64,000 bases of DNA from a virus (IMGVR_UViG_3300045988_035487:1-64000), one strand, 5' to 3'; positions 739 through 7,957 are shown, counted from the stretch's first letter. Numbers and translations: made by a program. The notes: generated by a model from the letters alone, not told the origin.

Positions 739-804
739 TAAGAAGACAAACAGCAATTTCCTGTATGTTGGCATAAGTAAATGAATCTATTGTCTTCTGA
801 TGAT
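739..804 (+). repeat. conserved tRNA-leader hairpin element, copy 1 (TAAGAAGACAA-ACAGCA...TTGTCTTCTGATGATG)
   Basis: Shares the AAGAAGnC-TACAGCAC 5' arm and the complementary GnCTTCTG 3' arm with 4 other copies. Stem bases covary. Ends 1 nt before tRNA-Ile. Confidence 0.6.
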
Positions 805-879
805 GGGTGTATAACTCAGGTGGTAGAGTAACACGCTGATAACGTGTAAGTCCTTGGTTCAAGTCCAAGTACACCCACA
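805..879 (+). tRNA. tRNA-Ile(GAT)
   Basis: Acceptor GGGTGTA/TACACCC. Anticodon stem ACACG/CGTGT with loop CTGATAA. T loop TTCAAGT. Confidence 0.85.
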
Positions 880-905
880 ATACAACAATTTTCAATAGCT
901 TTGAA

Positions 906-974
906 TAAGAAGTCTTACAGCACGAAAGAAAGTGTTTCATATTTTATGATTTTAATTAAACTAAGAGACTTCTG
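906..974 (+). repeat. conserved tRNA-leader hairpin element, copy 2 (TAAGAAGTCTTACAGCAC...AGAGACTTCTG)
   Basis: Same family. Stem GAAGTCT/AGACTTC. Lies upstream of tRNA-Pro. Confidence 0.6.
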
Positions 975-979
975 TAGTT

Positions 980-1052
980 ATGGGTGTAATTCAGTAGGTA
1001 GAATGCTAGGTTTGGGACCTAGTTGTCGCCAGTTCGAGTCTGGCTACCCATA
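980..1052 (+). tRNA. tRNA-Pro(TGG)
   Basis: Acceptor ATGGGTG/TACCCAT. Anticodon stem CTAGG/CCTAG with loop TTTGGGA. T loop TTCGAGT. Confidence 0.8.
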
Positions 1053-1277
1053 CTCCCCGTGGCATCCAAGAGAGGATGCTGATAATCCCATAATAATAAA
1101 TGTGGACAACTACTCCGTTCGTGAGAATAGAGTAGTTTTAATAAGAACCATAATTAACACAATAATATATAGTTTCACTAAACAATTATCAAATCAACTC
1201 AACAACCAACTCAACAACTTTTAATTTATGATTTGATTAACCTGTTTCATAGTTAAGCCCATAAGTCGTATTGATAC

Positions 1278-1349
1278 GTGGGCTTGCCCGAGAGGTTTAG
1301 GGGCTGGTCCGCAAAACCAGTTAGGACGGTTCGATTCCGTCAGCCCACT
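1278..1349 (+). tRNA. tRNA-Cys(GCA)
   Basis: Acceptor GTGGGCT/AGCCCAC. Anticodon stem CTGGT/ACCAG with loop CCGCAAA. T arm GACGG-TTCGATT-CCGTC. Confidence 0.75.
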
Positions 1350-1366
1350 CTCGATTTAGTGAAACA

Positions 1367-1430
1367 TAAGAAGGCGTACAGCACTAATCATTGTACAGTT
1401 TACATGTTTTTGATAACGCGCCTTCTGCGG
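1367..1430 (+). repeat. conserved tRNA-leader hairpin element, copy 3 (TAAGAAGGCGTACAGCAC...CGCGCCTTCTGCGG)
   Basis: Stem GAAGGCG/CGCCTTC. Ends 2 nt before tRNA-Lys. Confidence 0.6.
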
Positions 1431-1432
1431 AT

Positions 1433-4892: not shown

Positions 4893-4900
4893 CTCAATAT

Positions 4901-4975
4901 GGTGGCATTAGCTCAATTGGCAGAGCATTAGGTTGTGGTTCTAAGGGTTACGAGTTCAAGTCTCGTATGTCACCC
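4901..4975 (+). tRNA. tRNA-His(GTG) with extra 5' G(-1)
   Basis: G-1 followed by acceptor GTGGCAT/ATGTCAC. Anticodon stem TTAGG/TCTAA with loop TTGTGGT. T arm ACGAG-TTCAAGT-CTCGT. Confidence 0.8.
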
Positions 4976-5273
4976 AATTCTGCTGTTTAGGTATAAACGT
5001 ATCATAAATCTTCCTGTTTGGTTTGACTTATTCAGCAGAGTTATATTTTATCTTGAAACGGAATGCCGAGGATGTGGTTAGGTGAAAATCCTAAAGTGGA
5101 ATGTAGGGTACGTTGCGTGACGAAGTAATGGGAGTAGGTGCGATGGCAACTTAATTAATGTTGAGGCCTCGTTAATATATGTATAGCTGTACAGCACCGA
5201 AGGATTTAGACTGTCCAAAGCAACTGGCGTAATAAAGCATAAAATCCAGTGAAGACGTATGTGTAGGCAGTAT

Positions 5274-5345
5274 GGGGCGGTAGCTCAATGGTAGAGCGCA
5301 GGTCTGAAGAGCCTGGCGTTGGAGGTTCGATTCCTCCTCGCCCCA
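5274..5345 (+). tRNA. tRNA-Phe(GAA)
   Basis: Acceptor GGGGCGG/TCGCCCC. Anticodon stem CAGGT/GCCTG with loop CTGAAGA. T arm GGAGG-TTCGATT-CCTCC. Confidence 0.8.
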
Positions 5346-5374
5346 CTTTAATAGATTAAATAATTATTAGTAAG

Positions 5375-5896
5375 ATGGACAATAACTTGTATTATATCTT
5401 AGGAGGCATCGCCTATGGTATATTTATCCTACAATTCATAATATCATGGGTTGCTGGGGAGTTCGATGTCGATGTAGACTTTGATGGTGATGCTGATTTT
5501 GATGTCAGTGATGTTGTATCCTTTAAAGGATTTATCCATTTCTTCATGGGATTCGGAGGATGGACATCTATTAAGCAATTATTAGGTTATGAAGTAACCT
5601 GGATTGATTGGTTAATAGGATTCTTTATAGGTCTTGTGTTTGTATTTATGCTGTATCATTTATATAAGTTCTGTATGAAATTGCAGAACCTTCCTAAAGA
5701 CGAACCGAAGACTAACTTAGTTGGCAGAACTGCTACTATCTATGTACATTTAGGTGAAGGGCGCCATTTGGCATCCGTGAACATAAGTGGAGCATTGAGA
5801 GAAGTAGAAGTTGTATCTCTTAATAAGAAGATATATCCTGTCAATGAGCCAGTAACAATTCGTAAATACGAAGACAATAAATTATACATAGATTAA
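5375..5896 (+). CDS. NfeD-like membrane protein (YqiJ/YuaF family; flotillin partner)
   Basis: N-terminal TM helices, then an acidic DVDVDFDGDADFDV segment, then a C-terminal OB-like beta domain (VGRTATIYVHLGEGRHLASVNISGALREVEVV). Lies immediately upstream of the flotillin gene. Confidence 0.65.
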   Translation: MDNNLYYILGGIAYGIFILQFIISWVAGEFDVDVDFDGDADFDVSDVVSFKGFIHFFMGFGGWTSIKQLLGYEVTWIDWLIGFFIGLVFVFMLYHLYKFCMKLQNLPKDEPKTNLVGRTATIYVHLGEGRHLASVNISGALREVEVVSLNKKIYPVNEPVTIRKYEDNKLYID

Positions 5897-5909
5897 TACC
5901 AATTTCAAG

Positions 5910-7871
5910 ATGGAAATGACATCATTAATTATCGTTGGTGTAGTTGTACTAGTTGCAATCATCACTATCATTGGGATTCTATCCCGCTACCGTAAATGTA
6001 AATCTGACGAATTGTTGGTAGTTTATGGTAAAACAGGCTCTCACAAAGAGAAAGTTAGCGAACGCGACGCTAAAGGTAATCTGGTTGACAGAGAAGTTGA
6101 AATTAAAACTGCCAAAGTTTATCATGGTGGTGCAGCTTTTGTATGGCCGATTATACAGGGTTATGAAGTAATGTCAATGCAGCCGATTCAATTGAATCTT
6201 GTATTGAAGAATGCTTTGTCAGCTCAAAATATTCGTGTAACTATCCCTACCACTGTAACTGTTGCTATTAGCCAAGAACCGCTGATTATGCAGAATGCTG
6301 CTAATCGCTTACTAGGTGCTGATGATGACGTTAAAGAAAGTTTGATTTCAGATATTGTTTATGGTCAGATGAGGCTTGTTATTGCTTCGATGACTATTGA
6401 AGAGCTTAACTCTGACAGAGACAAGTTCCTAGCTCAAGCTAGAGACAATATCAATACAGAATTGAACAAACTTGGTCTTTATCTGATGAATATCAATATC
6501 AGTGACATTCAAGATGCTGCTCAATATATTGATAATCTTGGTAAGAAAGAAGAGACTAAAGCAAGAGCGCAATCACAAGCTGATATCGCAGAAGAAGAGA
6601 AGAAAGGAGCAATCCAGATAGCTCAAACTACGAGAGAGAAGGAGATTGCAATTGCAGCAGCTACTAAGGAGCAAGAAACTATAGTGGCTGAAACTAACAG
6701 GGAGAAAGAAGTTGCTATTGCTAAGACCACTAAAGAGAAAGAAACTCAATTGGCTGAGCAGCATAAGGAACAACAAATTGCTGTTGCAGAGCAAAGAAAG
6801 GAACGTGAAATTGGTGTGGCTACAGCCCAAACTGAAGAAGCATCCAAAGTTGCCGAGCAAGAAGCATTGAGAGCTGCCAAGATTGCAGAGCAGCAAGCTT
6901 ATGCAACTGCTAAAGAAGCAGAATTTACTGCCAAAGCTGAAGCCGCTAAGGCAGAAGCAGAAGCAGAGAAGGAAGTTCGTATGGCAGTAGCAGCACAAAA
7001 CCAAGAAGCTGAAACTGTTAAAGCACAACAGGAAAAGGAAGCTAAAACTGCACAGTATGAATCAGAAGCCCGTCAAAAGGCAGCTGAAGCAGAGAAAGCA
7101 GCAGGAGTAGCTGAACAGAAAGCTACTATTGAAGTTTCCAAAGCTAAGGGAGAAGCAGAGAAAGCTAAAGCTGAAGCTGAAAGAGTAGCTGGTACTTCCA
7201 AAGTTGAAGCTCAAATGGCAGTTGCTAAAACAGAGCAGGAACGTCAGGTAGAAGTTAATGAAGCTAAAGCTAAAGCTGAAGAAGCTAAGCTTAAAGCCGA
7301 AGTGATTATACCTGCCGAGAAGGCCAAAGAGAAAGCTAAGATTGAAGCAGAAGCTGTTAAGAGTGTAGCCATTCTTGAAGCAGAAGCGGAAGCAGCTAAA
7401 ATCTTGAAAGCAGCAGAAGCTAAAGCAAATGCTACTAAGATGCAACTGGAAGCAGAAGCTGAAGGTACTAAGAAGAAACTTCTTGCCGAAGCTGAAGGTA
7501 AGAAAGCATCTTTAATGGCAGAAGCTGAACAGAAACAGGCAATGGAAATGGCTCCGGCTCTTGCAGTTGAACATATGATTAAATCAGGTATGCATCCTGA
7601 AGCAATCGTTCAATATGCAATGACCGACAGGTGGAAGGAAGTTGCTGAAGCCAACGCTAAGGTATTTGAACATATCCAGCTTGGTAATGTTACTGTGTAT
7701 GGTGATTCCAACACTGCTGGACAGTTCATGGCTAATATGGCTAAGAATCTTGCTCCGAGTTTGGAAATTGCCCGTAATTTGCCTATTGCAGATTCGCTTA
7801 AGCAAATAATCACTGGCAAGAAGCCAGAAGAATCACCAGCTAAAGGTGATAATTTTCCTCCTGTAAAGTAA
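5910..7871 (+). CDS. flotillin / SPFH (band 7) family protein, YqiK-like
   Basis: N-terminal TM anchor. SPFH domain (VWPIIQGYEVMSMQPIQL...). Long Glu/Ala/Lys-rich coiled-coil repeat region. Conserved C-terminal domain. 653 aa. Confidence 0.85.
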   Translation: MEMTSLIIVGVVVLVAIITIIGILSRYRKCKSDELLVVYGKTGSHKEKVSERDAKGNLVDREVEIKTAKVYHGGAAFVWPIIQGYEVMSMQPIQLNLVLKNALSAQNIRVTIPTTVTVAISQEPLIMQNAANRLLGADDDVKESLISDIVYGQMRLVIASMTIEELNSDRDKFLAQARDNINTELNKLGLYLMNINISDIQDAAQYIDNLGKKEETKARAQSQADIAEEEKKGAIQIAQTTREKEIAIAAATKEQETIVAETNREKEVAIAKTTKEKETQLAEQHKEQQIAVAEQRKEREIGVATAQTEEASKVAEQEALRAAKIAEQQAYATAKEAEFTAKAEAAKAEAEAEKEVRMAVAAQNQEAETVKAQQEKEAKTAQYESEARQKAAEAEKAAGVAEQKATIEVSKAKGEAEKAKAEAERVAGTSKVEAQMAVAKTEQERQVEVNEAKAKAEEAKLKAEVIIPAEKAKEKAKIEAEAVKSVAILEAEAEAAKILKAAEAKANATKMQLEAEAEGTKKKLLAEAEGKKASLMAEAEQKQAMEMAPALAVEHMIKSGMHPEAIVQYAMTDRWKEVAEANAKVFEHIQLGNVTVYGDSNTAGQFMANMAKNLAPSLEIARNLPIADSLKQIITGKKPEESPAKGDNFPPVK

Positions 7872-7890
7872 TCCTTTTACAGTGAATTTC

Positions 7891-7957
7891 TAAGAAGACT
7901 TACAGCATTGAGGTAATCATAAGCGATTGATATAGCATAAATAAGTCTTCTGTGGAT
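7891..7957 (+). repeat. conserved tRNA-leader hairpin element, copy 5 (TAAGAAGACTTACAGCA...TAAGTCTTCTG)
   Basis: Stem GAAGACTTA/TAAGTCTTC. Ends 1 nt before tRNA-Ser. Confidence 0.6.

Follow-up and report, generated by a model that had tools for sequence, protein, structure and literature searches.

What are the short hairpins that stand immediately before several tRNA genes of a large phage, and what might they do? The question is raised by IMGVR_UViG_3300045988_035487:1-64000, a viral sequence of 64,000 nucleotides (nt) that was analysed at its full length and is referred to here as the window. Its first ~24 kb carry 23 tRNA genes called by ARAGORN, including a CUA suppressor, among small open reading frames (ORFs). 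The original prediction described five elements with complementary arms ahead of tRNA-Ile, -Pro, -Lys, -Arg and -Ser, and all five were located on the plus strand where it had placed them (Table 1). These elements are a conserved, covarying RNA structure lying just 5' of tRNAs. With a probability of roughly 0.55, we interpret them as genes for small structured RNAs that would act as Y-RNA-like partners of a divergent phage Ro60-like protein.

The generic form of the element consists of U-AAG, a stem of 8-9 bp, a (U)(A)CAGCA(A/C) motif, a loop of 13-131 nt, the 3' arm and a final CUG(U). Folding with RNAfold closed hairpins 1-5 by the proposed stem and showed little further structure in their loops. 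The window loops are unstructured, measure 26-45 nt in hairpins 1-5 and 13-45 nt over all six hairpins, and contain no tRNA-like domain in the RNAfold predictions. The pattern TAAGAAG-N35-65-CTTCTG occurs six times in the window against 0.20 expected, and six matches were reached in 0 of 100 shuffles. Five of these are hairpins 1-5; the sixth, on the minus strand at 40156-40204, is without CAGCA and looks like a chance match. A degenerate sixth copy had been suggested near 5188. That site holds TACAGCAC without a matching 3' arm, it is not matched by our covariance model (CM), and relatives show no copy before tRNA-Phe. A sixth hairpin does exist, but elsewhere, upstream of tRNA-Thr, and it was found by inspecting the leaders of all window tRNAs. 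This hairpin 6 is diverged and scores poorly with the CM (Table 1); its orthologues in two relatives (L139 and L146; fetched loci are numbered with an L) reach 40 bits. Its AGGAG/CUCCU stem is a compensatory change relative to the AGAAG/CUUCU of hairpins 1-5. Long non-coding stretches precede tRNA-Ala (4026-4212) and tRNA-Phe (4976-5273, which includes the TACAGCAC at 5188), and neither stretch matches an RNA family.

No nucleotide match to the hairpin region was obtained among GenBank phages, and a conserved 670-aa protein showed only distant kinship to large Bacillus and Salmonella phages, so the label of Bacteroidota phage is a tentative one. Relatives were fetched through the neighbourhood of an SPFH gene (window 5910-7871), with SPFH protein identities of ~100%, 75%, 69% and 48%. 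A scan of IMG/VR with the 5' motif, followed by a filter for complementary arms, showed this architecture to be present in many contigs (90-180 kb) from gut metagenomes. A viral scan with TAAG-N5-CTTACAGCAA left only two matches after a strict stem filter, and the CM recovered real members in both of these loci. A scan of bacterial contigs (TAAGAAG-N4-5-CAGCA-N20-50-CTTCTG) yielded chance matches, with complementary variable bases in 3 of the 120 matches listed against ~2 expected, and is uninformative on bacterial genomes. The covariance model, R1, finds 84 copies in 19 sources, every one co-oriented with the tRNAs. Diverged relatives have hairpins at the orthologous tRNAs (Ile, Pro, Lys, Arg-UCU, Ser-GCU and Thr), and the recurrence in related phages expected by the original prediction is thereby borne out. 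The loops of orthologous copies are unrelated, while the stem and the motif are kept through compensatory changes (GCG/CGC against ACG/CGU; GGAAG/CUUCC in L086). The loop sequence is therefore not the function, and functional loops or guide-like small RNAs were ruled out on this ground.

Covariation was evaluated on two alignments. Among 24 distinct copies, 93.3% of stem cells pair and both-side changes occur in 6 of 9 pairs; the covariation score is 0.407 against 0.122 in column shuffles (equalled in 0 of 500) and 0.09-0.14 in slid registers. The same picture was obtained with 48 distinct CM-aligned copies (0.33 against 0.11 in shuffles), both-side changes affecting 6-7 of the 9 pairs over the two alignments. 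The covariation first proposed from five copies consequently stands. The AGAAG/CUUCU arms, taken as constant in that proposal, vary in relatives (GGAAG/CUUCC, AGGAG/CUCCU). Conservation is concentrated instead at the base and in the motif: in the 48 copies, U(-2) is present in 46, A(-1) in all 48, the A-U and G-C closing pairs in 46-47, each CAGCA position in 46-48 and G(+1) in all 48, with U as the next base in 32. A C-G pair at stem position 7 is conserved and non-covarying, and CAGCA always lies 9-10 nt from the stem base. The claim that loops start with TACAGCAC holds for the CAGCA core; the start is not strictly that sequence, rather (U)(A)CAGCA(A/C/U), with hairpin 1 (AACAGCAA) and hairpin 4 (UCAGCAC) as exceptions. 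The motif forms of the window are UACAGCAC, AACAGCAA, UCAGCAC and UACAGCAU.

An inverted repeat at tRNA gene boundaries might alternatively be a DNA-level element, such as a promoter, a hairpin recombination site (attC-like or REP-like) or a miniature inverted-repeat transposable element. Consistent with this, close relatives carry differing tRNA-Pro and tRNA-Lys alleles after identical hairpins, making the junctions exchange points, and an HNH endonuclease gene lies within the array. Several observations make such an element very improbable: the shared orientation of all 84 CM matches with the tRNAs, a conserved motif confined to one side of the loop, arms of differing sequence between copies with pairing kept (the opposite of transposon ends), loops of up to 131 nt and the match of members to RNA covariance models. 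A scan for sigma-70-type promoters and for the Bacteroides -7 motif TAnnTTTG found such motifs neither enriched nor consistently placed, and promoters were rejected as candidates. The promoter or attenuator role listed among the original options accordingly found no support.

The placement of the hairpins relative to the tRNAs is highly regular. In all six window copies, 5-6 unpaired nt ending in U separate the CUG from the tRNA 5' end, so each hairpin has the context of a tRNA 5' leader and RNase P substrate, with a single-stranded leader, U at -1 and a position directly before the mature tRNA. Upstream spacing is loose, the hairpins beginning 16-35 nt after the preceding tRNA, and downstream spacing is tight. 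The elements could consequently be cis-acting 5' leaders, in which the hairpin would stay in the precursor and aid or time RNase P, protect the transcript, or recruit a factor (possibly the Ro-like protein itself) to the adjacent tRNA. In agreement with this explanation, every window copy and the majority of copies from relatives finish 4-6 nt ahead of a tRNA, U occupying position -1, and the hairpin persists at the same six tRNA identities in diverged phages. We nevertheless consider it unlikely. Seventeen of the 23 called window tRNAs are without a hairpin, and the conserved single-stranded motif and termini suggest specific recognition and not simple folding. Elsewhere among the phage lineages, units of the module follow one another in tandem at intervals of 2-6 nt without a downstream tRNA (Table 1), and a U-run often comes after the last unit; hairpins without a downstream tRNA were found in L307 as well. 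The module also closes tRNA-like domains, and the association with a Ro-like gene, both described below, would be left unexplained. The same observations speak against a tRNA leader or processing signal specifically, as first suggested, and among the originally listed options a small-RNA family comes closest.

Table 1 Coordinates and properties of the hairpins, tRNA-less arrays, and RNA-processing and ligase genes. Window hairpins extend from the U of UAAG through the G of CUG; scores are in bits.
Feature	Sequence	Coordinates	Strand	Form	Downstream	Scores
Hairpin 1	window	739..799	+	U-AAG-AAGACAA / AACAGCAA / loop / UUGUCUU-CUG	tail AUGAU 800-804, tRNA-Ile at 805	R1 53.9; RF01414 15.9
Hairpin 2	window	906..974	+	U-AAG-AAGUCU / UACAGCAC / loop / AGACUU-CUG	tail UAGUU 975-979, tRNA-Pro at 980	R1 53.6; RF01414 18.5
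Hairpin 3	window	1367..1427	+	U-AAG-AAGGCG / UACAGCAC / loop / CGCCUU-CUG	tail CGGAU 1428-1432, tRNA-Lys at 1433	R1 55.3
Hairpin 4	window	3579..3629	+	U-AAG-AAGGCA / UCAGCAC / loop / UGCCUU-CUG	tail AUGAU 3630-3634, tRNA-Arg(UCU) at 3635	R1 46.2
Hairpin 5	window	7891..7952	+	U-AAG-AAGACUUA / CAGCAU / loop / UAAGUCUU-CUG	tail UGGAUU 7953-7958, tRNA-Ser(GCU) at 7959	R1 51.0
Hairpin 6	window	10140..10177	+	A-AAG-GAGAUG / UCAGCAC / short loop / CGUCUC-CUG	tail UUUAU 10178-10182, tRNA-Thr at 10183	R1 16.3 (E 0.23)
Tandem array	L012	2746-3048		four units	no tRNA	
Tandem array	L006	5100-4830	-	three units	no tRNA	
Tandem array	L089	1362-1576		two units	no tRNA	
Tandem array	L100	5224-5355		two units	no tRNA	
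Tandem array	L274 lineage	6976-7501		three units	no tRNA	
ATP-dependent ligase	window	51420-52628				
RNA ligase	window	53621-55009				
CCA-adding / poly(A)-polymerase-type nucleotidyltransferase	window	55677-56453				
Polynucleotide kinase-phosphatase (PNKP)	window	57084-58004				

In relatives whose loops measure 80-131 nt, pieces of a tRNA are arranged in the order T arm, closed acceptor stem, D arm. Members with such a domain are L007 4201-4319, L007 3799-3953, hairpin 2 of L006 and hairpin 1 of L089, and the predicted folds place a cloverleaf-like core atop the conserved basal stem. Within the first of these, L007 4237-4306 matches positions 23-88 of YrlA (RF02553), its tRNA-like core, at 39.6 bits (E 3.8e-7), a score below the gathering score of 69. 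Within the second, L007 3857-3911 resembles the tRNA-like domain of tmRNA, including CCA. Permuted or split functional tRNAs were considered for the long loops and rejected; a YrlA-like closed domain fits better, and several T arms are imperfect. As the same basal stem stands under differing loops, conservation belongs to a basal 'handle', which carries the apical part as variable cargo. Directly upstream of the L274 array and its DUF2828 gene lies a tRNA-like gene (~6866-6975) with a 7-bp acceptor stem, a T arm, an oversized anticodon arm and CCUUACAGCAA between the 3' strand of the anticodon stem and the T arm, which makes it an 'unpermuted' counterpart of the hairpin module.

The identity of the gene neighbouring the arrays supplies a candidate partner for the hairpins. 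Arrays in L012, L006 and L274 abut genes for proteins of ~560 aa that match Pfam DUF2828, DUF7788 and, weakly, vWA_Ro60. A tblastn search over all fetched loci detected a same-strand homologue in every hairpin-bearing lineage with enough flank, and none in the ~300 fetched loci without hairpins. For the lineage of the window, this homologue is encoded at L121 268-1962, immediately before the tRNA array. L121 and the window are homologous from window base 48 (L121 3768) onwards, and the gene ends 1.8 kb upstream of the window. Window bases 1-47 are sequencing adapter (bases 14-47 read GTCTCGTGGGCTCGGAGATGTGTATAAGAGACAG, Nextera), an untrimmed contig end, so the contig was simply cut there and the Ro-like gene falls outside. 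Database homologues of the L121 protein (43% identity, E ~1e-130, PF11443 and PF25043) are encoded on contigs of 180-190 kb. A profile of the Ro-like protein found no match among PDB sequences. Foldseek returned human Ro60 as the only significant match, aligned over 547 columns; the fold of the DUF2828/DUF7788 protein is Ro60-like. In a reverse test, three lineages were fetched through the protein, and two of the three proved to have 4-6 hairpins in the tRNA array that follows the gene, placed as elsewhere a few nt ahead of tRNAs.

Rfam searches at gathering scores and at E<=10 returned only tRNA-related families and, below threshold, RF01414 (Class I RNA), which in E-value mode is the only non-tRNA-related family matching the hairpins. 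Its seven matches all fall on elements already defined and nowhere else in the searched regions, with 30.4, 28.2, 24, 24 and 23 bits in relatives and lower scores for two window hairpins (Table 1). The HDV-like/theta, hammerhead, twister, pistol and hatchet models had no match on any element at E<=10. This result bears on a further explanation, that the elements are self-cleaving ribozymes by which tRNA ends are matured. Theta (HDV-like) ribozymes are the model: in recoded gut phages with suppressor tRNAs they abut tRNAs as the hairpins do (PMC10879173). Hatchet and twister ribozymes do occur elsewhere in relatives that also have a hairpin array: a hatchet at L012 1620-1705 (68.6 bits, above the gathering score) and a near-threshold twister-P1 on the minus strand at L006 2047-2112 (59.5 against 67.2 bits). 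Theta ribozymes, however, cleave at their own 5' end beside the tRNA and have an HDV-like fold, whereas the hairpins lie upstream and bear no ribozyme signature; with few conserved nucleotides and unstructured, unconserved loops, a self-cleaving activity is hardly credible.

Class I RNAs of Dictyostelium are 42-65 nt long and have a short stem of the 5' and 3' ends in which pairing, not sequence, is conserved; an 11-nt motif, CCUUACAGCAA, adjoins the 5' arm and the remainder is variable (PMC7919456). Their termini are conserved, with an AAG start and a CUGU end (Kjellin et al. 2021, PMC7919456), and they have been reported in no organism outside Dictyostelia (PMC7919456). The phage family has in common with them the short terminal stem with compensatory changes, the unpaired CCUUACAGCAA-type motif after the 5' arm, whose core the phage CAGCA matches, the AAG start and CUG(U) end, and a variable, often A-rich remainder, with a size of ~45-70 nt over both systems. 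The (C)CUUACAGCAA-type motif stands directly after the 5' arm in both, and full CUUACAGCAA is present in L007, L012, L089, L274 and L347. The Rfam model spans G to CUG and leaves the flanking AA and the terminal U unscored; because every hallmark is shared, including these unscored bases, a chance resemblance appears unlikely. Differences exist: the phage stem has 8-9 bp against 6 bp, the phage motif lies 1 nt closer to the base, and the phage RNAs are situated inside tRNA operons while each Class I RNA, an abundant and discrete transcript, has its own DUSE promoter, a eukaryotic element ~60 nt upstream, where the phage copies sit 16-35 nt after a tRNA. The likeness may reflect homology or convergence on a similar ligand. 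The supplement of Kjellin et al. includes outgroup 'Class I candidates', for example an Arabidopsis locus with a CM score of 40, which we take as a lead only.

A conserved unpaired motif would also suit a single-strand-binding domain, and the hairpins could be free small RNAs that function apart from the Ro-like protein, such as decoys or sponges that capture an RNA-binding protein of the host. Bacteroidota possess RRM-type Rbp proteins, and the Dictyostelium Class I RNA is bound by the RRM protein Rnp1A. The sharing of all Class I hallmarks is compatible with this explanation, yet it accounts neither for the consistent nearby DUF2828/DUF7788 gene nor for the YrlA-like tRNA-like domains of some members, and we judge it decidedly improbable.

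Since the family occurs near a Ro60-like gene and closely resembles Class I RNAs, a role as protein-binding small RNAs is more probable for the hairpins than one as mere tRNA leaders. Y RNAs offer the closest precedent. They are small, have a conserved terminal stem and are encoded beside Ro60 in bacteria and phages, often in several copies, and some bacterial ones mimic tRNA and are cut by RNase P (PMC4201824). Phage phiLo encodes Ro60 and two adjacent Y-like RNAs that assemble with host PNPase (PMC12135203). The phage hairpins share with YrlA (RF02553) and with Yrl1 and Yrl2 of the Thermus phage phiLo the conserved stem formed by the 5' and 3' ends, the presence of several copies per locus and the occurrence in phages; the domain of T arm, closed acceptor stem and D arm found in some Y RNAs is shared by the long-loop relatives only. 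Y RNAs are encoded beside the gene for a ring-shaped TROVE and vWA protein, whose phage equivalent would be the DUF2828/DUF7788 protein. The two systems differ in that the DUF2828/DUF7788 branch is divergent, without a Pfam TROVE match, in that the phage handle combines an AAG...CUG closure with a single-stranded ACAGCA, and in that the window copies stand among genuine tRNAs, as far as 12 kb from the protein gene.

Several points weigh against hairpins that serve as Y-RNA-like partners of the Ro60-like protein. No DUF2828 homologue was found among the window ORFs, that is, the Ro-like gene is not inside the window, and in the window lineage the hairpins lie 2.5-12 kb downstream of it; because of this distance the link is one of neighbourhood and not of adjacency. 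The Ro/Rsr-binding motif GNCGAAN0-1G or CGAA, as defined in PMC4201824 and PMC12135203, is absent from the conserved alignment positions, and the window copies contain no obvious effector module. The third lineage fetched through the protein (L389) yielded no hairpin at E<=1 in a locus that ends 3.4 kb past the gene, and neither did L147, the most distant SPFH relative, at the same cutoff. No RF01414 score reaches the 41.5-bit gathering score. The excess of G.U over A.C in the stems (16 to 3) gives weak support as a sign of RNA-level pairing, because it derives mostly from the uncertain innermost pair. The constant spacing of 5-6 nt to the tRNA could equally indicate a role in cis, and protein binding and expression are features that we infer.

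If the hairpins are indeed Y-RNA-like partners of this protein, their structure suggests how they might be made and used. The handle would consist of a closing A.G, A-U, G-C base (5' AAG ... CUG 3') and a covarying helix of 8-9 bp, with the single-stranded (U)(A)CAGCA(A/C) 9-10 nt above the base and the variable apical part on top. The window RNAs would be transcribed within polycistronic tRNA precursors. Cutting at the next tRNA, 5-6 nt downstream, RNase P would leave a short defined 3' tail, and the 5' side would be released by an RNase Z-type cut behind the preceding CCA-less tRNA; in the stand-alone arrays of relatives, the U-run would define the 3' end of the last unit. Such a route has a counterpart in the E. 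coli 3'ETS-leuZ sponge, a spacer-derived small RNA of a tRNA operon. There too, a functional RNA is released by RNase P and 3'-end processing of a polycistronic tRNA precursor, but 3'ETS-leuZ base-pairs with small RNAs via Hfq and belongs to no repeated structural family, whereas the phage module is of a protein-binding type and is repeated six times. The minimal window copies might gate, load, tether or titrate the Ro-like ring, and ring and hairpins together could perhaps serve in quality control of tRNA or other RNA, in company with the RNA ligase and PNKP of the phage. In the long-loop relatives, the tRNA-like domain may tether tRNA-binding enzymes, as is thought for YrlA.

The remainder of the genome shows further features of RNA metabolism. 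The phage tRNAs do not encode CCA, and the phage carries a gene for a CCA-adding-type enzyme, which belongs to an RNA repair and tRNA maturation gene set at 53621-58004 (Table 1). The tRNA at 549-621 has a CUA anticodon (amber suppressor), which suggests that UAG may be recoded in part of the phage. It is followed at 623-702 by a tRNA-Met(CAT)-like gene that ARAGORN misses and that Rfam matches only weakly, as tRNA-Sec (20.4 bits); relatives have a normal tRNA-Met at this position, and the window copy seemingly has an enlarged D region. The minus-strand tRNA-Arg(TCG) called by ARAGORN at 7986-8062 fully overlaps tRNA-Ser(GCU) and is probably a false positive. A second hairpin family follows tRNA-Pro and tRNA-Lys (1109-1136 and 1549-1576) and recurs in L121 (2300-2340, 2586-2615) and L086. 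It has a 7-bp covarying stem and a T-loop-like (C/G)GUUCGNGAGAAUA, then a U-run, and its L121 occurrence reaches to within 5 nt of tRNA-Gly. Either a terminator whose loop is conserved or a further Y-like piece could account for this family.

Insertions are also present in the array. The HNH ORF (2068-2475), within 2023-2482 between tRNA-Trp and tRNA-Ser, is missing in the close relatives L121, L085 and L124, and it looks like a mobile insertion. In L121 (4742-5525) and L085 (5165-5948), an insertion of ~780 bp lies 3' of the tRNA-Pro anticodon, corresponding to window ~1016-1021, and is possibly an anticodon-loop intron; ARAGORN fails to call tRNA-Pro in these two relatives. Outside the array, the gene for the anaerobic ribonucleotide reductase NrdD is split into two ORFs (44600-45739 and 46634-47671) ~900 bp apart, with an intron, an intein or an endonuclease as possible contents of the gap. 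The ORF at 12458-13525 encodes a PurZ-like adenylosuccinate-synthetase homologue (phrog_1211), a hint of 2-aminoadenine (Z) DNA in the phage.

No description of the hairpin family was found in Rfam 15 or the searchable literature, and the latter contained no Class I-like RNAs outside dictyostelids and no function for DUF2828. If our interpretation is true, the hairpins constitute a structured-RNA family, so far undescribed, that large phages of the human gut commonly carry. They would provide a first functional lead for DUF2828/DUF7788 proteins, which would be RNA-binding rings of Ro60 type served by a distinct kind of Y RNA. Placement 5-6 nt before a tRNA would represent a route for making such RNAs, with the 3' end set by RNase P. 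The phage Ro-like system would further be tied to tRNA supply and RNA repair, the same genome carrying the tRNA array (23 called), the suppressor tRNA, RNA ligase, PNKP and the CCA-adding-type enzyme. The old question of the role of the Dictyostelium Class I RNAs would become directly testable through a DUF2828-type protein, should dictyostelids have one. A broader and much more tentative possibility is that the phage hairpins and Class I RNAs form one class, a Y-RNA-like ligand of DUF2828/DUF7788 proteins, these proteins being a second Ro60-like branch with members among phages, bacteria and eukaryotes. The class would then either be of ancient common descent or have been transferred between bacterivorous amoebae on the one hand and phages or bacteria on the other. 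Two orphans would each gain a molecular partner and a function open to testing: the uncharacterised DUF2828 family and the Class I RNAs, which have been known for 20 years and thought unique to social amoebae.

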